A stretch of DNA of 64,000 nt from Eukaryota sp. GEM-RC1 (taxonomy: Eukaryota). Location: the NCBI GenBank assembly GCA_040285855.1, contig JAUFOQ010000013.1:1240001-1304000 (forward strand). Reading direction: 5' to 3'. Numbering within the stretch: position 1 is the first letter of the stretch; each line of letters begins with the position of its first letter. The position numbers and the translations under genes are program-made. The notes below the pieces were generated by a model. It searched no databases. It saw only the letters and a list, made by a program, of their open reading frames with translations, and was not told the origin of the DNA. Shown piece by piece: positions 165 to 59,901 of the stretch.

Positions 165-447
165 TATATTTAGATAAACTTCTATGACACTCCTAGGCCC
201 TGCATCATGTGAAATTTAACCTAACTTGGAAGTTCCTAAGTCTTTCCGGCACATCCGATGACGATAGACCAGAACTTGCAACATTCATACTCCAATATGC
301 CATAACAAACATCTTTCGCATCAAAATGTCAATATGTGTGCTAGGTCCTTAGAATTCTGACCTTCGTCCTTAATTGAGCAGAAATCTCTACTTTGGAACA
401 TCCTCTTCATTCACTGCTCTTGTCTGAAAGCTTGTTCTTAAACAGAA

Positions 448-1577
448 ATGATTATCGGAGTTCCTAAAGAAATCAAAAACAATGAAAACAGAGTTGGGTT
501 GACTCCTGCTGGAGTTCGCGAACTTACTAAACGAGGCCATACCGTCTATGTCCAACATACTGCTGGAGAAAACTCCGGGTTTCCTGATTCTGACTATGAA
601 GAAGCCGGTGCTCATATTCTCCCTACCATTGAGGACACATATGCCGCTGTTGACATGATTGTCAAGGTCAAGGAGCCTATTGAGCCCGAATATGAGCTCA
701 TCAAGGAGGATCAGCTCCTCTTCACATTCTTCCACTTCGCTTCTCATCTACCATTAACAGAGGCAATGATCAAATCTAAGTCTATCTGTGTTGCCTACGA
801 GACTGTTGAAAAGTCTGATAAATCTCTCCCTCTTTTGGCTCCAATGTCAGAAATTGCTGGTCGCCTTGCTTCTCAAAAGGGTGCCAACTACTTGGAAAAG
901 CCTTTGGGTGGAAGGGAATTTTACTTGCAGGAACCCCTGGTGTTTTGCCTGCACGTGTTGTTGTTATTGGTGGAGGAAGTGTTGGTTACAACGCTGCTTT
1001 AATGGCTGCTGGTCTTGGTGCTGACGTCATCATTATGGATGTCTCACTTCCCAGGCTTAGATACTTGGCTGAAGTTATGCCTAAGAATGTTAAAACTATG
1101 ATGTCTAATGATTATAACATTAGAAAAGTCATTAAAGACGCTGACCTTGTTATTGGAGCTGTCCTTATTCCTGGTGCCAAAGCTCCTCATCTCATTACCA
1201 GAGATATGCTTAAATTGATGCAAAAGGGAACCGTTGTTGTTGATGTGGCTGTTGACCAAGGTGGATGTATTGAGACATGTAAACCAACCACTCATGCTGA
1301 TCCTGTCTATGTCATTGATGATATTCTCCATTATTGTGTTGCCAACATGCCTGGATGTGTCCCTTTCACTTCAACTCTAGCTTTGACCAATGCTACTCTT
1401 CCTTATGTTATTCAGCTTGCTGATAAGGGCTGGAGACAGGCTGCACTTGAAAACTCTGAATTTGTTCCTGGCTTGAATGTTGTTCATGGTGATGTTGTAT
1501 ATAGAGCTGTTGCTGATGCTTTTGATATTCCGTGGGTTCCAGTAGAGAAGTATCTTTCTGCTGAAACTAACGAATAG
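448..1577 (+). CDS. ald: Alanine dehydrogenase (bacterial-type); one apparent frameshift near 910-920
   Basis: MIIGVPKEIKNNENRVGLTP start, VKVKEP, LPLLAPMSEIAGRL, VVVIGGGSVG Rossmann motif, VDVAVDQGGCIET, HYCVANMPG. ORFs 448-1002 and 945-1577 join. Confidence 0.93.
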
Positions 1578-2093
1578 TTAGTGTTTTGTTTATTATAGTA
1601 CCTTGTTTATTGTTGGTAAATCTGTTTATTGAGCTATGTTTATTACAGTATTTGGTATAGATGTGAACAGTTTAAATGTTTTGTATTCTGATTCTCATGG
1701 TGGTACAGTCGCTCTTTTCCTAGATTCCTCTACAGTTGTGGTTGATCCATATGCAAAGTCTTATGAGGACTCCGTTTCGAATGATTCTATTGATCACGTT
1801 GAAAAGATTGAACAACCGAAGCAAACATTCTATTGGATGTTCTGAATAAACTAAAAATATTAATTCAAAAGTTTCATTTGTTCCATTTGTTTACATAATC
1901 TTGGTCCAACAGGGGCAAAAATATTAAATGATTTTGATCGTTTCTACCGATATACTAATAGAAAGGCTGTGACTGGTTCAAGAGAGAACAATAGTGAGAA
2001 TACCTTTAAAACATTTTGAATGTCTGGATTTTAAAATTCGACTTGACTCGGCCAGAGAAAATAATGTAGCGTTGGCAAAAAAATATAATCGAT

Positions 2094-2901
2094 TTGAAGG
2101 ACAGTTCTTCAGTTGCTTTGATCAACCAAATTCCACAGATTTATGGACTGTTGTTGAATGACCATCAATGGACTACAACGTTTAGACTTCGATGTTTCTT
2201 GCAGCCCTCTAATTTATCTAATGATCTTCAATGTAAATGTGGTAAATTAGTTACTTTTTCTCACCGTTTGAGTTGCGATCGTTTCATTACTTTTAAAACT
2301 TGCATTCGTGATGCTGTCAGAGATCAAATTCATGTCATGTGTAAGTCCTACAAAATCGAATCTTTCGTTGAGCCACTGTTGAGATCACTGGAAATCAATA
2401 ATTCAAAAAATAGTGATTCTGATAAGACTTTTGGTAAACGAAGAGCTGATGTTATAGTTCCATCAGTTAATGATGAACTAACCGTTGTTGATGTGATTAC
2501 TGTGGATGTTTGCAAAAAAGTGCATTCAAGGATGCTAAAAATGAAGTTTCTCCACTGAATTCTTCAGAACAATACAAGAGAAACAAATATGATTAACCAT
2601 TGACTGCTCACATACATATTAGACACGTTGAGTACAAATTATGTCCTTTTGCAATATCAATTTATGGTCGACTTGGTCGAGATGCTCTTTGTTTTTCTCT
2701 CTGATTTTGAGAAAGTGGTCAAAAAGAAAGAACAAGAAATTTGATTTCAAATTTTGGTTGAATCGTATTGTTTTTACAATATTTAAAACAATTCCTATCA
2801 TGATTTCAAAAGCTCTATTAGCTCTCAGTGTTTTTTATGAAGAAAAAGCTGATGTGAGTTTTAATGGCGATGATTGTTGCTTTAATGATATTGAGTTCTA
2901 G
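2094..2901 (+). mobile_element. 3' relic of a non-LTR retrotransposon with restriction-like endonuclease (RLE)
   Basis: CKCG..H..SC knuckle, RDAVRDQI, IESFVEPL, RRADV..P..VVDV RLE-type motif, broken by stops and frameshifts. Its 3' part recurs at ~60160-60360. Confidence 0.7.
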
Positions 2902-3290: not shown

Positions 3291-3495
3291 GTAAATGGTG
3301 CTCTAATGTCTGGGATGGTGGATTTACTCGATCCCTGGTTTCACTAAAAATACAGACATCACAATCAATATTTGTTATCTGCTTAAAATATAGATTTTCT
3401 ATAAAGAATATAAAAATACTGTGTACAAACGCACTTTCCCGGCCCCTGTCAGGAACATAACTATTGTTATTGAAATTACTCATTGTGCATTTGCA

Positions 3496-3560
3496 TCCAG
3501 GATTTGATAGAATATCTCCATCGATACTCAAGCATGAACAAACTATGACGACTGGAGATG
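3496..3560 (-). pseudogene. Decayed 2A-like peptide remnant (LQSS*FVH/LSIDGDILSNPG)
   Basis: Resembles the element B leader (LQSSQFLRDLTMDGDIESNP) but has a stop, an indel, E>L and no final Pro. Confidence 0.6.
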
Positions 3561-3695
3561 TAGTTTACTCTTTGAATAACAAGCAACTAATACAAAATAC
3601 AACAAAAGATGGGATTTGATGATTAAAGCACTATTAGTAAGAATTCCAATCCAAAAAAGATCAGATAAAACTCTGAAAACACAGGTTAAATTGGA

Positions 3696-6536
3696 TCAAC
3701 ATGTTTTAACTATTGACCGCATGGTTTGTGTATGACAAAAACCAAGACACTGAACTTTTTTCTTTTTGTGCAAAGTACGTACTGTACTTATGAACACCAC
3801 ATCTGCTTCTCTTCCCTGAAAACCATCAGTGGTAGACACAGTAATTTTTTGACGATAAGCTTGACCAACTCTATCATCTAAATGTTGATTAGGTACTGAC
3901 ACTTGGGCTCTATATGGTGTCAAAACAGCCACCAACAATTGTCGTTTGAGAGATTCTTCGATTTCAACCATATACATTTCAAAAAAAAAGGTTCACTTGA
4001 GTAGCCACAGCAGTTGCTTCACTGAAATTTAAGAGACTGCCTGCCAGAGTTTTGGAAAATTGGTGTTGAGAAGCAATAGAATAGAATTAAAAAATCTCTT
4101 CTGGCAAAAGAAGCAGTAAGACGACAGGGTTCTTCGGTCTGAATATTAGAATCGTACCAGACTTTGTTTGAAAATTCCCACAATTCTTGATATTGACGAT
4201 ATTGAGGATTTAATCGTTTAAATCTACGATCTTCAATCATTCTGTTTAAATGAGATTCCATCAGAGATTTAGCCAATTTTGGATTTCGGCTGAGAACAAC
4301 AGGAGGTAGCTGTTTTTCGTCTCCTACAATAACAACAGAAGCATGGTTGGGACATATTTTAAAAGCAGAGATGATTTCAGGTTCAGTTGCTTGGCCAACT
4401 TCGTCTATTATAAGAATATCAGGAGTGAAAACATTCAGTTGTCTGTATAAACCAGCAAGCGTCAATGTAGTAAATACTACATCAAATTCGTCTTGGACCC
4501 ATGATAAATCGGGTTTTTTCTCTTCGTCATCATCTGATAAATCAGCATCTTCATCTGCGTTTTGAAGTTTTTCCGCAATTTTTGTAGTCAACAAGAATTC
4601 TTCCATAGATTCTGATTTGCGGTAAGGAGCAGAAATTCGGAGTAATTTCTTTCAGTCGACATTTTCTTCATTAGCCAATTTTAAAATAATTACTTCAACA
4701 GCATCATTTGAGGGTGCAGCAACCCAAACTTTGATTCCATCATTGATCAGAGAAACAATCAAATTCACAATGGTTACTGTTTTGCCAGTACCAGGTGCTC
4801 CATGGATGCAATATAGACCAGGATCATTTCCATGTAATTCTCTAATCTCTTCGCATGCTTCTTGCTGTGACTTGTTCAAACTTTTGAAAAGACAGAACTC
4901 GGAGAAAATTGTTTTTGACACTCAGACATTGGCTTTTGGAGTTCAATTCCTAATTGAAATTTAATTTGTGCAGGAATTTTTAAGTCAACCATAGCAGAAA
5001 TTTGACGAATATAATTGCAAATGGATCCAATTTTCACAGCACAAAGCACTGTCAGCGGACAAATTGGGTTTTGAGTAATCACAGTGACCTTTGACCAAGG
5101 AATACGGCTATGGAGGCGGTAAAACTTATTCACAACAGCAACATGAAGCTTATCGTAATTTCGATCACGTATATCGGATAATGATCGCAATAAAAAAATA
5201 TCTGAATTACCAACATGGCAACAAGGACGCCTATTGAAGTACCATTCTTGAAATTCGAGTGGAATCCTAACCTCATACATTGGTAGCTTCGAATTGAGAG
5301 TATTGACAAATGTTTCACAACGATCCATACTTTCCAAAATTTCTGGGTCCTTAGTTAAGTCAGCCAAAAGTACCCGCATATTGGTAGAGAAACCATATTT
5401 GTGCTGGGTTGAAGGATGCATTGTATAACCCATTAAAACTTCTTGTTTGTCATAATTTGATAAACTGTAACAACAATTAGCAGTAATTTCATCTAAAATG
5501 ACATCAATCCATTCAGCTGAATAATCTGAGCCAACAGATAGTTGGAGAATGAATTGGCGTTTCGTGTCACCACTCATTTGGACATTAGTAAAAGTTGATT
5601 GCGGGTTTTCAGTCAAAGATAAAAAGTTTGGCCACCAATTGAAAAGATGAGGAACAATAAGGCTGGTGACTGATTCCTGAGAAGTAACAGAAGTTACAGA
5701 TGGTGGTCTATTTAAGGAAAATTGTTGACCAAAAATAAAAGAAGATTTGGAAAAGATTTGGTAACTGATGGAAAGAATGTTAGTAGTTCCAATTGATTGT
5801 TTTCAGCGAAAATGTCATCAGTTTCAGAGCTTTCAGACCAAAAAGGAATTACTCGTCTTTGCTGAGCTCGATCAAGTTGAGGAAGTGGATCAATTGGCGC
5901 ACTTATTGAGTAAGTTTCTTTCAGTGATGGCCAGGATGCAAGTGAAGGTGGAGGAGCGACTTCAAAGTTCTGGATAAAATCAGCAGGGTATTTGTCGATG
6001 ATTTTTTTGTTTTGAGATTTTTGACTTAAGGTAGCTTTGGCAAAAGCTTCAACTTCAGCATCGGAATAACACTTTTTGAAAACGGGTCGTTTTTTAAGTT
6101 TTTTTATGTATTCCTTCCAAGACTTTGGAGACACAAAATTTCGCCAAAATTTATTGTCTTCAACAACAACAAAAATTCCTGGCTTAGACTTTCTGTCATC
6201 AGGCCCTGGATTATTTTCAACATCTCCATACAAAGTCAAATCCTCTTTGTATGGATAAATGCTATTTATTGTTGATACAGAAACTACTGTAAAAATAACG
6301 ACGTTATAAGAAAAGACGAAAAAGGATTCTGCACACCTGATGGTGTTTTTAAAACTCGAAACAGTAAAAGAAGAAAAAAAGAAGAAAAAAGGAAATACGT
6401 CCTTAGGATAAACTCCTGTGAGCGCATCCTGAACACCTGATGGTGTTTTTAAAACTCGAAACAGTAAAAGAAGAAAAAAAGAAGAAAAAAGGAAATACGT
6501 CCTTAGGATAAACTCCTGTGAACGCATCCTGAACAC
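3696..6536 (-). CDS. Element A: 2A peptide + possible RNase H1/viroplasmin-like N-domain + UPF1/SEN1-like SF1 helicase (frameshifted, 3' truncated)
   Basis: DLTLYGDVENNPGP at 6201-6242. Helicase motifs GAPGTGKT, VAAPSNDAVE, IIDEVGQ, VGDEKQLPP, LNPQYR, VLTPYRAQV, STTDGFQGRE across ORFs 5712-6536, 4876-5616, 4652-4921, 4019-4606, 3696-3977. Motif VI is absent. Confidence 0.8.
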
Positions 6537-6576
6537 CTGATGGTGTTTTTAAAACTCGAAACAGTAAAAGAAGAAA
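6333..6576 (-). repeat. 100-bp tandem repeat (2.4 copies), 5' leader of element A
   Basis: acacctgatggtgttttt recurs at 6333, 6433 and 6533; units nearly identical. Confidence 0.95.
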
Positions 6577-6710
6577 CCAGAAGACACAAGTCATCAGAAA
6601 GAGTGGTGAAAGGGGATTTAGATTTCATTTCAACAGATGTGTACCTACAATGTAGACTCTGTTCGAGACATTAGCATTCTTTTCACACATTACTCTCCAA
6701 ACAGCTACGA

Positions 6711-6879
6711 ACTCAACTTATTGCACATGATAAAGAAGTTTTTGACATTGCGTTTGCTCGATCTCCAGATCTCTTTGCTTCAGTTGAAGCAGACGGCTCC
6801 GTCAGAATGTTTGATCTCTGAGCTCTTGGTCATTCCACTATCACTCACGAGACTACAAACACACCCCTCATACGCCTTC
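6711..6879 (+). pseudogene. DCAF7/WDR68 (WD40) gene fragment
   Basis: Translates [46 protein letters not shown]. Confidence 0.75.
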
Positions 6880-6944
6880 CGACTGAAGGGTTAGGATTGA
6901 TCACAACTTTTCCCTCAGCACCCACTTACCATACTTTGACTCTC

Positions 6945-7200
6945 TCTTAACCCAAAGCCTATTATGGGGCGATAAGGACGATATACAACACGTGTTTAAG
7001 ACCTTTCTAACGCTTGACTTTGTCATCGCCTCGGATGTTGTCTGTTGTGTGTACTCAACTGAAAGTGTCCCTCTACTTCTTGATACTATTAAGCAATTCA
7101 TTGATCGATATGGTTGTACTGTTTGGATTGCTCTGAAGTGGAGATCTGCAGAGTTGTTCCTCTATAGATTGTTGAAGCATTTGGTCTTGATGTTTATAAA
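6945..7200 (+). pseudogene. METTL21-like lysine methyltransferase fragment
   Basis: LLWGD...LDFVIASDVV..VY...LLDTI...VWIALKWR; no N-terminus. Confidence 0.55.
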
Positions 7201-7499
7201 CAGTAACTAGGTCTTTTTGACTGTAAACGACACTGCTCACGGAAGTCTTCAATCAGATTCCCATCAATTAGTGGCAATCAATTCTGATAGCAATGAGATC
7301 CATGTCAATCCCGTATTTGGTTATGAACTGTCATATTGGCTGATTAATGGTACTGATATATTGACCTCAGATCCTCTTGTTATAAGGAATGTACAGGGAA
7401 ACACCACAGCTGAAGCTTTCTTTCAATTAAAAACTTACTCTGTCGATATTGAAAGTTCTGTTGATTTTGAAAGCAACTGTTAATTTTGGAATCTCTTGC

Positions 7500-10373
7500 T
7501 CCCCTTAATGGTGTGCTTTGAAGGTTTCTTTATCTTTACGGCAGTGTTTGAAAACCACCCGGGTGGCGTCTGGGTGGTACTGAATGGATAATTTTTGTCT
7601 TACCATCATCTTCAATCCATGACTTCCTGAATACATACTTCGTTGTTCAACGTGTCCTGAATACAATTATTTTAACGGGAGTTATTTCTAGGCTCGGAGA
7701 GGCTAATATCATCTTATTTATCTATTGAATTGTAATTCACCATTGGGTTGTAGTTTTGCAATAATGACAGAGATCATGATGATTTGTTGATCTGCGAGAA
7801 AATCAAGGTCGTGAGCTTCTTCTTCAAAATCATTCATTAGAGATCTTCTCTGTTTCAAAGACTCTTTTTCCGTTCTACGATGTTCATTCAATTCTTTATT
7901 CACTCGTGTAGGAATTCTCTCATTGATATTTCTTGTTTCAATATCAATTATAAAAACTGTAGGAAGGGAGTCATCAACAACAGTATCAGTTGCAATGTCA
8001 ATAAATGGAATTCTTGATTCTTTTTCCTTTTTTCCTTTAACAACTGGAATTTCAGGAAATTCATGCAAAGAATCAGTTGAACCTTCAACTACTTGCGAAC
8101 TTTGACATTCTTCGTCAGTTTTCGGGAATTTTGTACAACCACTAGATTGATTATACAGTCTCTGTTGACGTTTAGAAACTTGTTCTTGTGGACGATGAAT
8201 TTCTGACGAATGACACTTTTTTGGTTTCCGTTCTAGTCGTCGTGCTTTAGAGTTTTTGACGGATGTGGCAGATGAAGAAGAATAACTTGATGAAATTTTA
8301 TTAGTTACTTATAGAGTTTTACGACGAGATGACAGACGTGTAGTACTTTCAGAAGTTTCAGAAGATTTATTTCTTTTCCCAGCAGGTTGATTAGTTTTGG
8401 GAGATTTTTTCTTTCCAGTGTCCGATCTACAATGTTGTTGCTGAGAAAGTGTAGGTGGAACTATAGTTGGTTGTAAAGATTGAAGACACAATTTTATTAC
8501 TTGCCTACTCTCTTGAGCATTGATAGAGTTTTGCAACAATATACCAGCAGCTTGAATAAGAGATTGATCTGAGAATTCATGTGAAGTGAGAAGTTCTAAA
8601 AGTCCTCTCATATACTCAAGAACATAAATTCCACAATCATTTGGTGTTTGCTTCTCTATCACTGGAACAATAATGAGTCGATAATTGAGTTGATGAAGAG
8701 TTTCATTTACTTTCGAAATAACTTGATTCAAAAACGAATTAATTTCATGTAAATTCTTATCAACATCTTGTCTGTGATCTTCAACATCCTAAAGAGGATC
8801 GAGAAAGATAAAAAGTTCATCATGTGTATCGATTACAATCAAACCCCAATGTATACCAGAACTTTCGTTAATCAATGCGTCATTTATAGGAAGAAACAGA
8901 TATCTAGAATTTGCCTGCTGAATCTTGTTGATGAAAAATTGGTGAAGAGATTGATTTTCATGAACTAAAAATAATTGAACAGATCCAGGAGTTACAAAGG
9001 CGTTTAAATCAACTCCATATAGCTCCATCAAATGTCGAGAGTACCAATTAACACAATCGTCCACAATCCAACCATCAGGTGACAAAGACTTGATTGCTTC
9101 TGAAACCTCTTTTAAATCATTTTGTGTCAGAGCATTGGGATTTGAATCTGGAATTTCATCAGGAGATGACATAAGTGTTGAAGGTTCAGATATTTCAGAA
9201 GTACCAACAGATACATTCATTTGTTGTTGAGATTGGGTTGAATGAACGTCAGTAGGTAACCCTAGGTAGTTCCTTATTTCATTATTTAACATAGTCCTGT
9301 ATACTGTGGGATCAAAAGTTTGATACGATAAATCGAATTGACATGTTGTGACTGCGGTACAATGACTTAAACCTAACAACCGATTGTATTCTGTGTAAAA
9401 CTGATTGATGGCATTTTGATAGTCATTCTGTCCCTTTTCTAAATGCTTTACCTGAGTTTCTGGGTCGTTGTTGCTGATTAATTCTTGCAGTGATTGCACT
9501 TTCTCCGCCAATATTGGAAGTTTATACTTCAAATCAATAACTATCAACTGATTGACGGCATTTTGATAGTCATTCTTTGCGTCTTCTAATTGTTTTGGCT
9601 CAGTTTCTGGGTCGTTGTTATTGATCAATTCTTGCAGTGATTGCACTTTCTCCGCCAATATTGGAAGTTTATGCTGCAAATCAACTTGATTCAAAAGCTG
9701 GTTATTGAAGCTTTTATACAAGGTTTCAATCACATATAAAACAAAAATTCCACAATCATAGTCATTGTTTTGTTGTGGTACACTTAGATTGTGAGGATAA
9801 AAAGATTGCTAGCACGTGCTACATGTTCTTTGGTTGAATTTAAGAACATTTTTCCATTAAGGGAATCTGCGAAATACAAATGACTCAAAGCAAGATCGTA
9901 AATAGCAAGTCCCCAATGACTTCCAGGAAATAATGCAGTTATAGCATCATTAATAGGCACTACTACCAACACTTTACCAACATTGTTAGATTTAATGGTT
10001 ACAGAAACATCAGCCAAATTATCTTGATTTCGTATAGCGCTGCCAAACTCCATAGGGTCGAAATCTCCTATAATCTCTGCAGCAAAGGGTACTTTTGTGC
10101 TATCAAGTGATGCCCAAAATTTAAATGTGAAGATTCTAGCCATGTTTCATCACCCAGAGGACTAATACCACCAAAAGCAATTTCTGGGTCAGGGTTTGAC
10201 TCTATGTCTCCGTCCATAGTCAAATCACGGAGAAATTGTGATGACTGGAGATTTATTGACAACATACTAGTACAATAAAATATACAACAACAAAATAAAC
10301 AAGTAATGCAATAGTTGTTTTTCAAAAAAAAGAAGTAAAGACTTAGAATAAACTCCTGCGTCAATACTTCCAA
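7500..10373 (-). CDS. Element B: 2A-like peptide + two Ulp1/SENP (C48) protease domains + PolB-type 3'-5' exonuclease-like domain (frameshifted, 3' truncated)
   Basis: DLTMDGDIESNPDP at 10185-10226. Domain 1: VPIND..GSHWGLAIYD..YFADSL..QQNNDYDCG. Domain 2: WIVDDCVN..LPIND..GIHWGLIVID..FLDPL..KQTPNDCG. Then VFIIDIET..DQQIIMISVI (7718-8068). Confidence 0.75.
9399..9684 (-). repeat. 147-bp coding tandem duplication (2 copies) in element B linker
   Basis: KLPILAEKVQSLQELI.NNDPET occurs twice; aactgattga at 9399 and 9546. Confidence 0.9.
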
Positions 10374-10501
10374 TCATCTGATGATGTTTAGAAATTTGAA
10401 AAAGAAAAAAAAGAAGTAAAGACTTAGGATAAACTCCTGCGTCAATACTTCAAACATCTGATGGTGTTTTGTGAAATTTTGGTGGAAAAAAAGAAGTAAA
10501 G
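10324..10501 (-). repeat. ~81-bp tandem repeat (about 2.2 copies), 5' leader of element B
   Basis: aagaagtaaagactta.ataaactcctgcgtcaatacttc occurs twice; shares cttaggataaactcctg and ctgatggtgtttt with the element A repeat. Confidence 0.9.
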
Positions 10502-10792: not shown

Positions 10793-10864
10793 GGGGCTAT
10801 GGTCCAATGGTAGGGCATCAGCCTCCAGAGCTGCAAGATCATGGTTCGATTCCTTGTAGCCCCA
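10793..10864 (+). tRNA. tRNA-Trp(CCA) with unpaired 27:43 position (4-bp anticodon stem)
   Basis: GGGGCTA/TAGCCCC acceptor, GTCC/GGGC D stem, T-CAGC-CT[CCA]GA-GCTG-C anticodon arm, CATGG-TTCGATT-CCTTG T arm with one T:T mismatch. Confidence 0.85.
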
Positions 10865-10937
10865 CATTTTTGCAAACAACCCTCTGTTTTTTTTTCAATT
10901 GAAATTCCGAATATTTCAGCCCAACCACAAAGTAACA

Positions 10938-14399: not shown

Positions 14400-14706
14400 C
14401 TGTCACGTAATTAAGGTAATTCTTAATTCAAAACTATCGTAAAAAATTCAATGCACTTTTTCCTTAGCGACCCTAGATGGAAACAGCAAAGGGCATAATT
14501 CGTATTCAACCTGTTTTACATGTTTTAGAGCCATCAATGTCTAAAGGGAAAGTTTCAGAGTAAGCATTCTTTAAAGATGTCTTTTTACAAACATCCACTG
14601 ACACTACATCAACAACATACAATTTGTCTGTAGAAGAAGGGACAACAACCTCTACGAACACAGAGCTTATGTAATCACTTGCTTTTCTGTTTCCAGAGAA
14701 TATCAA
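14400..14706 (-). mobile_element. Non-LTR retroelement RLE fragment
   Basis: VVVPSSTDKLYVVDVVSVDVCKK, same family as 2094-2901. Confidence 0.55.
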
Positions 14707-15650: not shown

Positions 15651-16323
15651 GATATGTATTTTTCTACCCTTCATCGATAAACTGTTTTTTGATTATAACA
15701 TAATTACTAATTTTTCAATGCTTCCATCAAAGTTCTACATTCCACAAATCTTTGTTGTAGTGGAGCAACAATTGTAAATATAACTTGACAGAACCAAGAG
15801 CAGGACGGTCCTCCTGTGCCGTCTTGTTCTTGACAACAATCTTGCAAGAAGGAATAAAATTAAGACATTAGTAAGAGATTTCCTGGATTGTAGCATCTTG
15901 TTGCTCAACTAGAGAAAAGAAAAATCACCTGAGATTTCTTTCGAAGTAAATGTGATGTAGAAGAAAAAATACTGTATTGTTTTTATTGTGAAAAATCAAC
16001 CATCAATTATTGCTGCTTATTTTATTGCAATTACTGACCTCAACAAGTATTTTTCGGAATCCCTGATTGATAATATTCTATATTCGTAACTGTAAACTTG
16101 CATGAGATTAATTTGTTTTTCATCAATTATTACTTTAGAAAGCCTGCAATTGAAGTAAATGGTAGAGTCAGCAACCTAGGAAGCATCTCGACGAATGATT
16201 ACAAACATACCAAGAAGCTTCTGCAGTCGTGTCGTGACTAGCTCTACAATTGTCAGATACATTGTCATTTGAGGGTGGTCCTAAATTAATAGAACGAATA
16301 CCAAAAATTTAACTTAGCTTGTA

Positions 16324-18526: not shown

Positions 18527-19125
18527 CTAAAACTCAATATGATCATAGCAAGATTCCTTAGAATCGAACCTTGTTGAACCTTTGTCTTCATAATGCACTC
18601 TGGCGGATAATAACGCTTTCGAAATCATTGTGGGAACTGCTTTTAGAATTGTAAAGACAATTGTATTCTGCCAAAGAAGAGCGGTCAAATATTTTGTTGG
18701 TTCTATGAGCAACAACCTTTGCAAAATCATCTAAGAACTTCATGGCTAATTTACCCAAACGACCATACATAGAAATCGCAAAAGGGACAAGTGAATATTC
18801 GACATGAACAATGTATTTCAGATCTTCGAGTGGATCAGCATACTTTCTTTGTTTGAAATTTTCTGCAATGTCTATAGTTGATACTTCTTTTGTATCCAAT
18901 TTGTCACTTTTCTTGCAAACATCCACTGAAACAACATCAATCACTGTTAATGATTGAGAAGAAGAAGGTATAACAAGGTCAGCACGTCTTTGTCCAAAAG
19001 TATTTTTTTGGTTGGTTGATTGATGTCAAGAGATCTAACGGTTCAATGAATGATTCAATTTTGTAAGATTTGCACATAGCATGTTGTTGATCTCTTACTG
19101 GGTTATGCATAGAAGATCGGTAGAT
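18527..19125 (-). mobile_element. Non-LTR retroelement RLE 3' relic
   Basis: MCKSYKIESFIEP, GQRRADLVIP, VIDVVSVDVCKK, PFAISMYGRLG, ending ..HIEF* like the other copies. Confidence 0.7.
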
Positions 19126-35222: not shown

Positions 35223-38200
35223 AGATTCCTGATCTTTCTGGTTTACGTGTGAGTCCTTGGGTACATCTTTCTTAGGGTTATTTGGACAAGTTGTTTTGTT
35301 ATGTCCAGGTTGAGAACATATACGACACTTGTTAGGACCTCTGACAGTTGTTGGAGGACGTTTTGCCTTACCCTTACCCTTACTCACAGTCTTTTTCTTA
35401 GGAATCTGATCTGCATTCCCGCCATCCACGACAGGTGTTGTTTTAGATTTTGGTCTCTCGAGGATGGCAGGTCTACCTTGACCTTGAATGGTTCCATTTA
35501 CAATATTGTAAATATTGATAGCAGAGTTGAAGTCTCTATTCCAGAGGACATGACATTTAGCACATTCAACTAAGCCCCATGGTGAGACTTTGTTGTTCTT
35601 CAATCTTTCTTTCGAAAATGGCAACTGGTCTGTCCATTCTTTTCAAAGTTACGCTCCACAATATTGTCTAATTGATTGTGTTCCATAATTTCCTTTTTAA
35701 TTCTTTCTCTTCCTTCTGTAACTTCTTCTTCCAATGAGGATCTGTGACTTTTATCCTTTCAGGATTGGAACAGATACCTTCGTCGTTTCTGGAAACACAT
35801 GCAGAGCAACATTTGCTGGTCTTAAATTCATCAACTAGGAACACTTTAAATCCAAATTTTCTTAATAATATCCGAATTGAAGCACCTTTTACAGTAGATG
35901 CTTTACCTCTTCTTCGACGAAAAGCAGTGTCGTTCCAGTCTCCATACCCAACAACGACTTCATCTGGGTTTCCAAACTGGAGAGCAAATCTGTGAAGCAT
36001 GTTTTTCTCACTTCGTTCCTTTCTTGAATACTGTGTGAGACGATTCCTCCTAAACCACTTTTCTTCGTAAATTCCTTCAGTAGTTCTTTGATCAGTAGTG
36101 GGTGATCGTAATAAAGAACAGGTAATTTCTTTACCAAGAACAAAATCAGAATACTGAGTCAAATCACAAGATCTACTGCCTGGCGAGTTAGAGCCCCATT
36201 GATCTAAAATTTGTTGCCCATTTATGTCAATGCGTCTGCCATCTGGAATGTGAATAAATTGAGTAGAATACTGTTGTAACCGTTCGGATTCAGATAAACG
36301 GTGGAGATTGTATCGTCTTATTTTCTTCTCCAGCTTCCTCTTCTTTCTCTTAGCTCTTTTTCTTTCCTTCCTTGTTTTTTTCTTTTCCATGGAGACTTTT
36401 TAATATCGGCATTGCGTTCCCCAGCAGTGTATCTGAATACTTTCCAATTGTCTCGATTTTTCAACTTGACAGTTGATGGTTTGTCAATAGTAGGTGCGTC
36501 TTTCCAATCCTTCAATTCCTTTTTTAATTTTTTCAAGCTTCCTTTTTTCTTTGACGATTTTGGACAAATCTTTCTTCTTCTGAGATTGGCTGATGCATCG
36601 AAACCTTCGATTTTCTTTTCCTCCTTAGATTTTAAAGAAGCACAATACATCAAATCATGCTGATTAGGATCAATAGCAACAATTCTTTTTGATTTCAAAT
36701 TTAAGTTTTGAATTTCTGTGGAACTCAAAGAATCAATGTACCTTTCAGTAGCTGTGTAGTCAACAGCTTTCACCTTCTTATGAGGATTTCCTCTCCCATC
36801 AAGCAGATCTTTCCGCATCATCATTAAATTACAGCTAACTCCATCTGTAGAAATAGAACTGTATTTGAAGTCATGAGACAATGACTTTGGAAGACACTTT
36901 GGTTTCAAAACTGAGTGCCAAATATCTTTTCGAACGTCATCAAAGCTACCTTTAATTTCTGATGCATAAACTTTTTTAAACCATGTAGTATCCAATCTGA
37001 TATGATTAGGAATCAATGATTTTGTCAGAGGAAAAGGATTATTGGCAGTAACACCAGTACAAGAGTCTTCAACAAGACGTTTCAAATACACTGCATGACT
37101 TAAGAATTTCAAAGGATCTACTTTTTCAGCATAATAGATTGTTTTCTCCATTTTACCTTCAAAAAAAGTAAACAAATAATTAAAAAATAGTAAACTCAGT
37201 CTAGAATTGGGATCAGGAAACACTTCAACATCTTGAAAATTAATTTTTGAAATTTCCCCATTAATGATCAACTGTCTGACTTCATTAAGCTTTGTACACA
37301 ACTCTTGTCGTTGATTCTTATCAGTAAGCTTGTTAAGTCTATCTTTTTCAGGGTAACCAAATTAAATACTTGAAAAACATATTCGTGAAAGTGTTCACTC
37401 ATGTTATTCTTGTAATTTGTAATAATTTCTGTAGCCATGTAATGCAATATAGGAGATAAACGATGGCTACTGGGAAACACAATCCTATCAAGTCCAACGG
37501 AATCAGCAGCTAGTTCTAAACGAGGAATGTAATGCATCAAGAAATGTTGAGCAAACTGATTTTGAGTTGAGCCATCATTTGTGTTAGAAATTATGTTTGT
37601 TAACGATTCTTGTACAGTCCTAATATGATTCTGATTGTTTACAAGTCTTTCGTCCCTAATCGTCATCATAGACAACACTTGTTCCATTGATTTCAACGTA
37701 AAAAAATTCTTCCAGTTTGGCAATTCAATTTTGGTGGTTTGAATTCTAGTCCAAAGGTCAGGTTCAGGTTCACCACTCACATCTTCAATATTTTCTACTT
37801 TAACGGGAGGAGCAGTAGCATCGATAGACTCTGAATGTACATCTGTTTCTTCATCAGTTGACTCATCTGTATCAGAATTCATTTCTTCCTTAACAGTTAC
37901 ATTTGGAACAGTAGCAGGCAGCAACTTCTGAATGTAACCTAAAATACCAGAATGTTGAAAATTATGAACACAAAAATGTTTCAAAAAGAGAGTACTACGG
38001 ACTCTTACTTGGTGAGCTCTCTTAACACGAGATTCAATAAATTTAACCTTCGCTTTGGATACAACATTGTCCAGTCGTTTCTTAACCACTTTCATTGGTG
38101 ACTTTGAACGTAATGTTTGTTTTTTGGGATCCAATAGGTCAGCCAACAAGTACTCAATCAGAGGTAATTGTTGAATTGAGTTTATCAACAATAGCGGTCT

Positions 38201-55307: not shown

Positions 55308-57761
55308 ATGTCCATTATCAACACACTTACAGACGAACAGGCTCAAGTGTTCCAAGCTATTACTCATGCAAGACCTTCTAAGCGTCGAAATTTCTTCATT
55401 ACTGGTGGTGCCGGATCGGGCAAGTCTTACCTACTGTACTGTCTTAAACAGTGGTGGTCTAATGCGGGTTCCAAGCTAATGAGACCCAATAGCCATGTCT
55501 TTTTTACTGCTACTACTGGTGTTGCTTCCACTGTCTTTGGTGGTCAAACCCTACACTCTCTCTTTGGTTATAATTTTATCCGTAATGAAAAACCAATATC
55601 TGATGTCATTCGCTCTATGCCTTCAAGTGTTAAGTCTGTTTTACGAACTATTAGTGCCCGAAATTCAATGCTTGTTATTGATGAAATTTCAATGTTGACT
55701 GCTGAACTATTCAACAGAGCATCTGATATATTTAAAGATTTACTAAAGTCTCAGTTACCATTTGGTGGACTTCAAGTTGTAATTTTTGGTGATTTTTTGC
55801 AACTTGCACCAATTGTAAAGTCTGACTCAAACACGCGTAGTGTCCTTCAACTTTCAGACTTTACGTTTTCATCACAATCTTGGAAGGACTTGAATTTAAA
55901 TTTTATTGAATTATCTGGAAGTATCCGCCAACAAAATGATGTCAATTTTTATAATTTTTTGAATGAACTACGTCTCGGACTTTTTGATGACTATATGAAA
56001 CATATTTTATTGAAACATAAGTCACTAGCCAAAAATATTGAACATCCAACCAAATTATTTGCTCGAAACAAGGATGTCGCCGACGAAAATTTAAAGCAAT
56101 TTGAATTATTATGTGAACAAGGGAATGAAAATGTTGAATTTCATTCCCTCGATAAGTTCAATGAAACCTTAATTAAATCAGAAATTGGTAAAAGTTGGGC
56201 ATTTGGTAAGCCTAATGAGGAACAAATGGAAAAGGCTTTTGATTTAAATTTAAAAAAATTATCAAGTAGGCTAAACGATTTTGCCGAACAAAAATTTCAC
56301 TGTGTCGTTGGGGGTTTGGTAATGTTTACTCAAAACAAACCAGATCTGGGCCTAGTAAATGGGTCAAAAGGCAAAATTATTGATTTCTCTGAAAGTTCAC
56401 ATTTCATTAATGTAAGATTCGGGAGGGACGAAGAACCAATCAAAATTATTCCGACTAAATTTGAAATTGAGGTGTTGAATGAGAAGAAAAAGCCTGTAAT
56501 TATAGCATCCCGATTGCAATATCCTCTTCGTCCTTGTTGGGCAATAACAGTCCATAGATCTCAGGGTCTAACAATTGAAGGAATTGAAGTTTCCTTAAAT
56601 TTTTGGGAGTATGCCCAATTGTACGTTACATTGAGTCGAGTGAAGAACTGGAACTCAATTAAAATTTTAGATATTTCTTCAAGATTTCCCAAACCAAGAA
56701 TTGATCTTTATCAGTGGTATTATTCCACTTTTCACCCCTGTCGACCAGTTACTAAACCTCTTTATCCTTTGCCATTAGAAGATGAAAAAATTGTTAGAAA
56801 TTGGCCTTCTGTGTTGAAAACTTTTGATGACTTTTCGTCAAATATTATTTCTATTGTTGGTGAAAGTATAGAAACTGTTGATGTTCTTGATCCAGTCAGT
56901 GAAGAAGTTAAGGAAGATTTGGTGGAAAAAGATGTTCCAAAAATTGAAAATTTGAATACCACTTCTAATTCAGTTTTAGAATTATTCGATAATGAAGTTG
57001 TTGTCTCTGGAAGTGATAGTGGAGATGATGAAACTGATGATGATAACGATGCGTCGTCTAGTATGAATGATTTTGTTGTGAATGATGATGAAGATGAGTG
57101 TCTCAATGGTCAAAGTGTAAGTGCCATCAATTCTGATTTAATTTTTAACAAACCTGTGCCAAAACTGAAAAAAACAACAGTCACTACTTTGCCTAAATTG
57201 AGACCAAATCTATTGTCTCGAAATACTCTCAAACCAAATTCGAATTTACCTAGTTTGAAATTATCAAAAAATAGTGCACAACATGAGGTCACTGAATCTG
57301 TCAACAGAATAACAAATTCTCTTGGTCTTCAGACAGATTTTGAAAACAACTTGAACAATACTCATAGTATTGCAATGCAGACAGAAACAAAGGTTCTCAC
57401 AATTGTCCACAATATTGTACCACTGCACTGGAACCAAAATGATACAACATCAGATTGTCTTCCAAATATGAAATTGAAACTTCAGTTGTTAAAAGATTTA
57501 AATTTATTGATGGCGGAAATTTTGAGTTTTCATTTGAATGATAGGGACAAGTACTTTAATGTGTTGTCGTTGACCAATACTTTTGTTATGTCGATATTAG
57601 ATTTAAATGATGAAGTGATGTGTGATGAACAGTGTTTAGGAATATTGGATGAATTTCGTGAAGTGATGTGTGAGTATTGTTGTGGGATTGGATATAAGGA
57701 GTCGTTTTCGTTGGCTGTGATGTTTGCGAGGGTGATGGGGGGATATAGTAGTGTTAGTTAA
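55308..57761 (+). CDS. PIF1-family DNA helicase with long acidic C-tail
   Basis: TGGAGSGKS, TATTGVAS, TLHS, VIDEISML, PFGGLQVVIFGDFLQLAPI, LVNGSKG, QYPLRPCWAITVHRSQGLTI, QLYVTLSRV. Confidence 0.92.
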   Translation: MSIINTLTDEQAQVFQAITHARPSKRRNFFITGGAGSGKSYLLYCLKQWWSNAGSKLMRPNSHVFFTATTGVASTVFGGQTLHSLFGYNFIRNEKPISDVIRSMPSSVKSVLRTISARNSMLVIDEISMLTAELFNRASDIFKDLLKSQLPFGGLQVVIFGDFLQLAPIVKSDSNTRSVLQLSDFTFSSQSWKDLNLNFIELSGSIRQQNDVNFYNFLNELRLGLFDDYMKHILLKHKSLAKNIEHPTKLFARNKDVADENLKQFELLCEQGNENVEFHSLDKFNETLIKSEIGKSWAFGKPNEEQMEKAFDLNLKKLSSRLNDFAEQKFHCVVGGLVMFTQNKPDLGLVNGSKGKIIDFSESSHFINVRFGRDEEPIKIIPTKFEIEVLNEKKKPVIIASRLQYPLRPCWAITVHRSQGLTIEGIEVSLNFWEYAQLYVTLSRVKNWNSIKILDISSRFPKPRIDLYQWYYSTFHPCRPVTKPLYPLPLEDEKIVRNWPSVLKTFDDFSSNIISIVGESIETVDVLDPVSEEVKEDLVEKDVPKIENLNTTSNSVLELFDNEVVVSGSDSGDDETDDDNDASSSMNDFVVNDDEDECLNGQSVSAINSDLIFNKPVPKLKKTTVTTLPKLRPNLLSRNTLKPNSNLPSLKLSKNSAQHEVTESVNRITNSLGLQTDFENNLNNTHSIAMQTETKVLTIVHNIVPLHWNQNDTTSDCLPNMKLKLQLLKDLNLLMAEILSFHLNDRDKYFNVLSLTNTFVMSILDLNDEVMCDEQCLGILDEFREVMCEYCCGIGYKESFSLAVMFARVMGGYSSVS

Positions 57762-57880
57762 GTTTGATAAACTGAGGTTGTATATTTTATTGGTTGTGTT
57801 TAACGACATTATATATAGAAGAAAAAATTATGAGCAACAACAATTCAATACACATAGGACACGTTGATTGAGATTGATTC

Positions 57881-58287
57881 TCACCAAATGTTGTAGTTAC
57901 AAATGTTGTAGTTACAAATATTGTATCACCAAATGTTGTATCACCAAATGTTGTCATTACAAATGTTGCATCACCAAATGTTGTCATTACAAATGTTGTC
58001 ATTACATATGTTGTAGTTACAAATGTTGTAGTTACAAATGTTGTATCACCAAATGTTGTCATTACAAATGTTGTAGTTACAAATGTTGTAGTTACAAATG
58101 TTGTATCACCAAATGTTGTATCACCAAATGTTGTAGTTACAAATGTTGTCATTACAAATGTTGTAGTTACAAATGTTGTATCACCAAATGTTGTAGTTAC
58201 AAATGTTGTATCACCAAATGTTGTAGTTACAAATGTTGTATCACCAAATGTTGTAGTTACAAATGTTGTCATTACAAATGTTGTCAT
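57881..58287. repeat. 15-bp minisatellite (~27 units, three variants)
   Basis: caaatgttgt followed by agtta, atcac or catta. Confidence 0.97.
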
Positions 58288-58803
58288 ATAGGACTTTTTA
58301 ACAAATTGGCAGATCCTGCTCCGACAGTATTATCGCTTCAGTTGTTGAGCGGATTCTCTCTAGTGTTCTTTGTTTGATAAAATTTATTGTTCCAAAGGCA
58401 CTGGAATTTATAACAGAACTAACAATCAATGTGAAACTCAATGTTAAGCATGTACATTCACACTATAAACAGTTTTCATTGGATTGTGATTCAGAATATG
58501 AGAAGGACTTCATGTAGTTAGTTAGGTTTGATTGCCACATATTTGTTATTGCACAGAACCTAGACAGCGTAAAACGGTTGTAGTGTGCGCCCATTTAGTG
58601 ACGCTATAGACATACTAGTAGTCTACTCAATGAAATTTACCTGAACATAATTCGTATTAATCTTAACGCAGATACACGTAATTCGGACTGATATTGATTT
58701 ATCACCGAAATAACAGAATGTGAGATTTATTTACAATGTTCCCAACATCTTCATAAATGAGTTATCACGTGATAAACAAGAAAAGTTAAGAACTAAAAGA
58801 AAG

Positions 58804-59264: not shown

Positions 59265-59901
59265 CAGGGATGTGGAAAAATATATTGCAGTGCAATCATT
59301 ACTTTCAGAAAATCAATTTACTGATCAAAAACAGGGGATCTCCATACTCCGTGCTTAAATCGAGTCGATCATTGATGGATTTTACTACAGTAGATGTTTG
59401 TAACAAATCTTGTGTTAGTAGGATATTAGATTCTTCTTTTAATCCGTTAACAGCAGCTTAAAAGCTCAAACACCCTAAAAATGACTCTCAAGTTAAAGAA
59501 TTAAATCGAAACTCATATTCCAAATTTGTTTCAACCTTTTGCTGTTTCTCTTTTTGGATCTATTAGTCCTGCTGGTGATCAATTTTTCAAGGATTTCGAA
59601 GAACTGTGTAAAGAAAAGAAGCGTAAGTTTAGAATGGCTGAATGGAAAAACCGTATAATGTTTTCCATATATCGGAATATGCCTTTCTATTTCCCTCGAT
59701 TAATGAGATATTGTTCAAGTTTGGTGTGAAGGTTAATGTTGAAAAACGTAATCTTTTATCGGGTGGCGATGAAGTCGAGTATTATCTCTGTAGAGTGTTG
59801 CAAATATTGCAATATATTTAATGCAACGTGACAATATCAATATATTTATTGCAAAATTTAAAACGTACAATATATTGCATTATATTTTTTCCGCATCCCT
59901 G
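59265..59901. mobile_element. hAT-like MITE, 637 bp, containing a retroelement fragment
   Basis: Imperfect TIRs CAGGGATG(T/C)GGAAAAA..ATAT; perfect 8-bp TSD ACAATAAT at 59257-59264 and 59902-59909. Confidence 0.9.

Follow-up and report, generated by a model that had tools for sequence, protein, structure and literature searches.

Among described systems the nearest is the 5' end of the Trypanosoma cruzi element L1Tc, where the ORF opens with an in-frame 2A and a short structured element, Pr77, stands before it; Pr77 is described as both an internal promoter and an HDV-like ribozyme (PMC5814959). The literature also offers a precedent for structured 5' ends proposed to be IRES-like and for a 5' 2A in L1Tc (PMC5814959, PMC6765202). 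Mouse L1Md elements carry tandem 5' monomers, variable in number, with a partial outermost copy and a linker (tether), and unrelated monomer types have been exchanged on one body (PMC6454616, PMC9022269). In APE-type non-LTR elements a 2A-like motif stands near the N-terminus of the mobile ORF and precedes APE/RT (PMC3708506), and Fanzor1-carrying eukaryotic transposons are a further point of comparison (PMC3627910).

Here we describe elements A and B, two mobile-looking genes of an anaerobic protist, at whose starts stand tandem copies of one short sequence. The host, Eukaryota sp. GEM-RC1, is described as Skoliomonas, a metamonad, and its assembly as built from nanopore reads with short-read correction (PMC11316075). 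The window, by which we mean the whole stretch of DNA analysed, is 64,000 nt long. The locus resembles L1Tc in having a short structured 5' element ahead of an in-frame 2A; however, the leaders lack the HDV-like fold described for Pr77 and are tandem rather than single (PMC5814959), and the cargo is a Ulp1 protease or a helicase, with AP endonuclease, reverse transcriptase, poly(A) and target duplication not found. All the L1Md features listed above recur here, but the monomers here, 81-156 nt in length, are predicted to keep an RNA-type fold; their frame is mostly open and runs on into 2A, and LINE machinery was not found. The 2A near the N-terminus is common to these genes and the APE-type elements, whereas tandem structured leaders are not seen in the available text on the latter (PMC3708506). 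With the Fanzor1 transposons the common ground is the related element C, which ends in a TnpB-like zinc-finger domain (weak Pfam matches); the main text of the Fanzor1 transposon paper makes no mention of Ulp1, protease or tandem (PMC3627910).

Tandem leaders upstream of 2A motifs

Array A (about 6329-6576, minus strand) has a period of 100 nt and 2.5 copies: the 5'-most monomer is partial, two full 100-nt monomers (A1 and A2) follow, and a third monomer ends directly after its hairpin. Array B (10320..10501, minus strand) opens with a partial 5' monomer, beginning in the 3' strand of helix P2 (see below), and continues with two 81-nt monomers (B1 and B2). The original prediction had read these periods as 100 and about 81 bp, and had described a hairpin with an AUCA loop followed by a conserved stretch and a U-tract; the letters are as it gave them (CACC-AUCA-GGUG in A, CAUC-AUCA-GAUG in B2, a C-A mismatch in B1). 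The hairpin occurs five times in the window, always on the minus strand and within arrays A and B (6334-48, 6434-48, 6534-48, 10375-89 and 10455-69), against a chance expectation of 1.1 with two mismatches allowed. The conserved stretch, the 17-mer CAGGAGTTTATYCTAAG, occurs four times, again only in the arrays (6402-18, 6502-18, 10342-58 and 10423-39); its chance expectation is 0.37 with three mismatches allowed, and four copies were reached in none of 100 shuffles.

The units of A and B align far above chance (0/1000 shuffles), and alignments of either with the leaders of two further elements, C and D, are at chance level (70 to 955/1000), which bears out, at this sensitivity, the claim that the two sets are unrelated. 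A model built from the four copies recovers only the five known copies in the 64 kb, the next best match having an E of 2. Within the window the motif is thus confined to 110-330 nt upstream of the 2A sites of A and B, the enrichment that had been proposed.

Four clear 2A-type motifs are present, all on the minus strand (6224, 10208, 40211 and 48205). That of A (6201..6224), DVENNPGP, fits the pattern D(V/I)ExNPGP; the 2A-like site of B (10185..10208), DIESNPDP, departs from it by a change of the conserved Gly to Asp, and P0014, a homologue of B, carries NPGP. We suppose that these 2As cause ribosome skipping. The linker of A (6225..6332, minus strand) is open in the 2A frame, and its 3' part is a hairpin running into the 2A codons. 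Such hairpins overlap the 2A coding sequence at 6219-6264 in A and 10207-10251 in B (minus strand); compared with synonymous recodings they are more stable in A (3/2000) and B (56/2000), weakly so in D (143/2000) and not in C (1013/2000). A fifth, degenerate 2A-like site (window 3490-3700, minus strand, near 3520) reads SIDGDILSNPG and follows directly after A's helicase with a B-like linker; upstream of it no intact motif and no model match was found.

In the 2A frame the four leaders contain two stops where 10.1 are expected (pooled p 0.002, Fisher-combined 0.047), a depletion that is significant in none of them singly. An in-frame AUG lies within A1 and another within B1. Leader periods are 81 nt in B, 156 in C and 153 in D, and an A paralogue, P0013, has a period of 33 residues, that is 99 nt in one frame, one base in the U-run apart from A in the window. 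The idea that conservation is at the nucleotide level survives, at the level of structure and nucleotides, but the argument offered for it, that 100 is not a multiple of 3, fails on P0013. It thus seems that the arrays have structure and that translation also passes through them. Variable copy number in an open frame would then yield variable N-terminal peptides, which the 2A would remove (compare the 2A-bearing elements described in PMC3708506).

The cargo of A (4019..6200, minus strand) consists of broken ORFs encoding an unnamed domain and then an Upf1/DNA2-like helicase (AAA_11, AAA_12); its middle ORF has no named match in the Atlas. That of B (7718..10184, minus strand), also broken, encodes Ulp1 (C48) protease domains and includes a 147-nt coding repeat. 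Element C (35223-40583, minus strand) has a 2A, Ulp1, a family-B exonuclease domain and a TnpB/Fanzor-like end (weak Pfam matches), looks like one broken polyprotein and has many homologues of 85-94% identity; the cargo of element D is a DEAD/DEAH helicase. A and B are without the TnpB-like domain. All four cargoes are frameshifted, and the A and B copies in the window are decayed (frameshifts; NPDP in B). The leaders of C and D (40300-40550 and 48234-48551, minus strand) form long hairpins around a common small core, whose loop presumably resembles the U1A binding word. An extra C-type leader (51318-51416, plus strand) runs into an unrelated short ORF and an extra D-type leader lies at 51945-52047 (minus strand), neither with a 2A behind it.

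We take the units to be mobile elements. A search of 58 of the window's 98 long frames and of 45 homologous proteins, a good many of which are fragments, turned up no RT or APE family. The 3' ends of A and B, which are only roughly placed in what are old copies, have no A-run of 8, and no recurring 9-mer marks a target-site duplication. Terminal inverted repeats (10-mers) were not found in A and B, and the end of a cut-and-paste DNA transposon was rejected on that ground; neither a transposase nor a matching 3' end structure was found.

Predicted fold of the monomer

Each coding-strand monomer is predicted to form the AUCA-loop hairpin (SL1), then a helix of 10-11 bp (P2), then the U-tract, which follows P2 immediately as a run of 6-8 U. 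P2 is closed by C-G and encloses an RC/AA internal loop and a hairpin, P3 (AGGA-GUUUA-UYCU); these 17 nt, RC, P3 and AA, are invariant. P2 and P3 are additions to the hairpin originally described. All structures lie on the minus strand. SL1 has 6 bp and an AUCA loop in both A1 (6532..6547) and A2 (6432-6447), and 5 bp in the third monomer of A (6333-6347). In A1 P2-P3 (6492..6530), where P2 surrounds RC, P3 with its GUUUA loop, and AA, contains the AUG in the 2A frame; in A2 (6392..6430) one P2 pair is broken and the minimum-energy fold is an alternative one. SL1 of B1 (10453..10468) has one C-A mismatch and holds the other AUG in the 2A frame, and that of B2 (10372..10388) has U-A in place of C-G and an inserted A that gives a stop in the 2A frame. 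P2-P3 is at 10413..10451 in B1 and at 10332..10370 in B2, where P3 includes a G-U.

The sequence of P2 differs between A and B and pairs in both, in a single ungapped register: three pairs are altered on both sides and three on one side via G-U, the non-pairs being two U-U in B and one A-C in A. Shuffled flanks reached the observed P2 energy in 18 of 5000 trials for A1, 0 for B1 and 6 for B2; A2 is weak in this test (86/5000 and 533/5000). Flanks of A paired with flanks of B give weaker helices (-2.7 to -8.5, against -10.5 to -11.4 kcal/mol). Over four copies and 21 pairs, 90.5% of 84 cells pair, compared with 40-46% in slid controls, and RNAalifold, unprompted, returns the same helices. Three double changes keep P2 pairing, but the comparison covers two independent DNA lineages only, A and B, and the count of pairs changed on both sides (4/21) is not above a shuffle control that ignores relatedness (84/500).

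Folding z-scores are -3.0 to -4.0 on the sense strand; two folds tried on the antisense strand gave -3.2 and -4.0. Three of the four copies fold better on the sense strand and B1 on the opposite one. G-U pairs that can form on the sense strand only number four in the P2 of A and one in the P3 of B2; the mismatch in SL1 of B1 and the broken pair of A2 would pair on the opposite strand. Pairing kept while sequence is free, together with wobble pairs on one strand, speaks for a structure that the sense transcript forms as a single strand, and we think it probable that the module acts as such. We expect the fold to form in RNA; with DNA parameters the minimum-energy fold is the same. Since A and B are old relatives by their 2A codons, of which four of the nine shared are identical (those four lying inside another hairpin), the identity of the 17-mer would reflect either constraint or recent exchange.

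Leader types among homologues and known families

Close homologues are many, all named Eukaryota sp. GEM-RC1. Further leaders were read via these proteins, whose gene models translate the arrays; the protein searches were seeded with 2A, so that copies away from 2A fall outside their scope. A 2A is present in 39 of 64 family proteins, and all 39 (two of them the window's own, and some showing the linker only) were sorted into nine leader types by keys chosen after reading. The two leader classes originally proposed, A/B and C/D, give way to at least nine further or overlapping types among the named homologues; that the A/B and C/D leaders do the same job is plausible. One cargo start is found with four leader types and another with three, the cargo of B carries a different leader type in P0014, and leader copy number ranges from 1 to about 8 among the named homologues.

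Relatives of SL1 were sought with a sequence-only matrix, made from SL1 of the window and scored on 12 back-translated units. The matrix picks the A paralogue (0/2000 shuffles), P0015 (1), P0085 (16), P0094 (20) and P0016 (24), and does not pick the other seven units (276-1677/2000). In P0015 the two codon-fixed departures fall one on each side of the closing pair, and in P0094 all four make up two pairs; pairing is kept in each case. The loop varies in P0016 and P0085, and AUCA is not family-wide. Among 3569 leader sites 4 reach a score of 9 with all pairs possible, and among 32957 coding sites 5 do (p 0.008, with the threshold set post hoc); one coding site, at 20.4, outscores all the distant leaders. 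These comparisons modestly suggest, post hoc, that four leader types may be diverged SL1 relatives with pair-keeping changes. Leaving the A paralogue aside, the 17-mer core was not detectable in the 11 remaining units (best 69/2000). A blind helix search on back-translated peptides had low power, missing three of four positive controls; so had a targeted search for P2, which failed two of three and gave 25/1000 for P0015 and 87/1000 for P0094; neither search is weighed for or against P2 in these types. In P0097, from the related organism TZLM3-RCL, a 2A and a ubiquitin-protease domain follow a 10-residue tandem repeat; the layout is therefore not confined to one species.

Rfam searches of A, B, C and D at E up to 10 returned only weak, unrelated matches: no family for the motif, and no IRES match for the leaders. 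The full pattern had no match in viral contigs, and a pattern scan of prokaryote genomes gave none. The 17-mer alone matched three times in viral contigs, and a metagenome pattern scan matched twice; we regard these five as chance, for without P2 and SL1 they score 14-18 bits, against 79-86. No viral locus encoding a relative of P0109 was found. Known structures were considered in turn. An HDV-like ribozyme, a nested double pseudoknot P1-P4, was rejected: Rfam gave no match, P2 encloses only 17 nt, and our own descriptor, used without a positive control, matched neither strand. An antisense hammerhead was rejected too, with CUGAUGA in one of five copies and CUGAUGG in four, helix I/III partners absent in A and no Rfam match; a hammerhead descriptor gave three loose matches in B, using distant partners. 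Two introns of the window's kinase gene (about 30 nt, starting GTATGT and ending CAG) served as reference for a host spliceosomal intron, which was rejected: in A the motif lacks a donor of this kind, and P2 extends across the boundaries that such an intron would have. Possible likenesses to MS2/PP7 operator hairpins, to U1 and U4 stem-loops and to twister/pistol are given no weight here. In the literature on 2A, Ulp1, Fanzor and ribozyme elements that we searched, we found no published account of these leader elements; the motif is real and, within that literature, undescribed.

Candidate roles of the leader

The reading that we prefer, at a probability of roughly 35%, is that the module is a ribosome entry or start site. 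The tandem 5' leader would fold in the sense transcript into SL1, P2 around its invariant internal loop and P3, and the U-tract; ribosomes would enter or start at the module, and the point in the array at which translation begins would vary; the in-frame 2A would then cut off the variable front end, so that the cargo protein would always carry the same N-terminus. In its favour are the tandem repeats, pairing that is kept while the sequence changes, their placement ahead of 2A, a 2A frame almost free of stops and leader types that are swapped. The open frame and the 2A do not favour it over monomers that are promoters, since both would be equally expected there. Against it stand the absence of any Rfam match to a known IRES, a 17-mer undetected in distant leader types and the decay of both copies.

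Monomers acting as internal promoters, as in mouse L1, and maybe also in RNA, as in Pr77 of L1Tc, are the foremost alternative, one that has a real if minority chance of being correct. Transcripts could start in any monomer, with the in-frame AUGs and the 2A tidying up afterwards. The word CAGRTG, which we take to be E-box-like, is kept in five of five copies, and the partial outermost monomer, variable copy number, linker and type swapping match the monomers and tether described for L1Md (PMC6454616, PMC9022269). A double-stranded binding site would, however, give no reason to maintain a helix whose sequence is free and whose G-U pairs form on one strand only, and no retrotransposon machinery was found that would need a self-renewing promoter. 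The comparison with LINE monomers made in the original prediction thus holds for the swapping of leader types on one cargo, as in mouse L1, but not for reverse transcriptase, poly(A) or target-site duplication; a LINE identity of the A and B units is not supported.

It is unlikely that the hairpins are a binding signal, in RNA or single-stranded DNA, for an element-encoded or borrowed mobilising protein, in the manner of IS200/IS605 end hairpins. The unchanged fold under DNA parameters would suit such a signal, as would the TnpB/Fanzor-like domain and helicases of related elements, but one cargo is served by many different leader structures, and the transposase, matching 3' end structure, inverted repeat and target duplication that might accompany it were not found. 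We rate as quite improbable that hairpin and U-run form a terminator or 3'-end signal, insulating the element or yielding from each monomer a small RNA of about 65 nt, or are the slippage-amplified relic of a captured small RNA: the U-runs of 6-8 directly after P2 and the decay of both copies would fit, yet the frame is open through the arrays, no small-RNA family matches, and pair-keeping divergence speaks against the neutrality of a relic. Least probable is a self-cleaving ribozyme of undescribed class, freeing the element RNA from read-through and preserved whole by tandem copies. An invariant 17-nt internal loop and hairpin in a freely covarying helix would suit a catalytic or ligand core, the 5' end of B falls a single base past that core, and ribozyme plus 2A is the layout described for L1Tc (PMC5814959). 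Yet the 5' end of A falls about 30 nt farther along, the core is unseen in related leader types, no pseudoknot partner for the AUCA loop was found in A1 or B1, and known ribozyme models and descriptors have no match.

A broader possibility, which we hold to be doubtful, is that a new compact eukaryotic RNA device, for ribosome entry or self-cleavage, is carried in exchangeable tandem cassettes and heads an undescribed RT-less family of 2A elements shipping proteases, helicases, an exonuclease and a Fanzor-like nuclease. The reason for a 2A at the very start of mobile-element ORFs is unsettled, and exchangeable leader arrays on one cargo make the notion of a variable start with a fixed N-terminus testable. 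A predicted fold of 60 nt without an Rfam family, together with about ten natural alternative leaders, provides a panel for ribozyme, IRES and promoter assays, and the arrays point to an undescribed element family in a metamonad.

A tRNA-Trp gene (10793-10865, plus strand) stands head to head with array B at a distance of about 290 bp; there is no tRNA near A, C or D. Between the end of B and the start of A lie broken WD40 and methyltransferase fragments (6675-6818 and 6887-7207, plus strand). Related fragments with a common motif occur at 2070-2558 (plus), 18591-19025 (minus), 14509-14706 (minus) and 59300-59730; to us the motif recalls the restriction-like endonuclease of non-LTR elements, and the Atlas matches of the 18591-19025 fragment are unnamed eukaryotic clusters that gave no name. 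A bacterial-looking alanine dehydrogenase (442-1577, plus strand) is split by one frameshift. Elsewhere in the window a PIF1 helicase gene and, after it, about 27 copies of a 15-nt repeat occupy 55224-58349, three 127-nt repeats lie at 52605-52986, and a 28-nt inverted repeat pair is found at 16320 and 17043.
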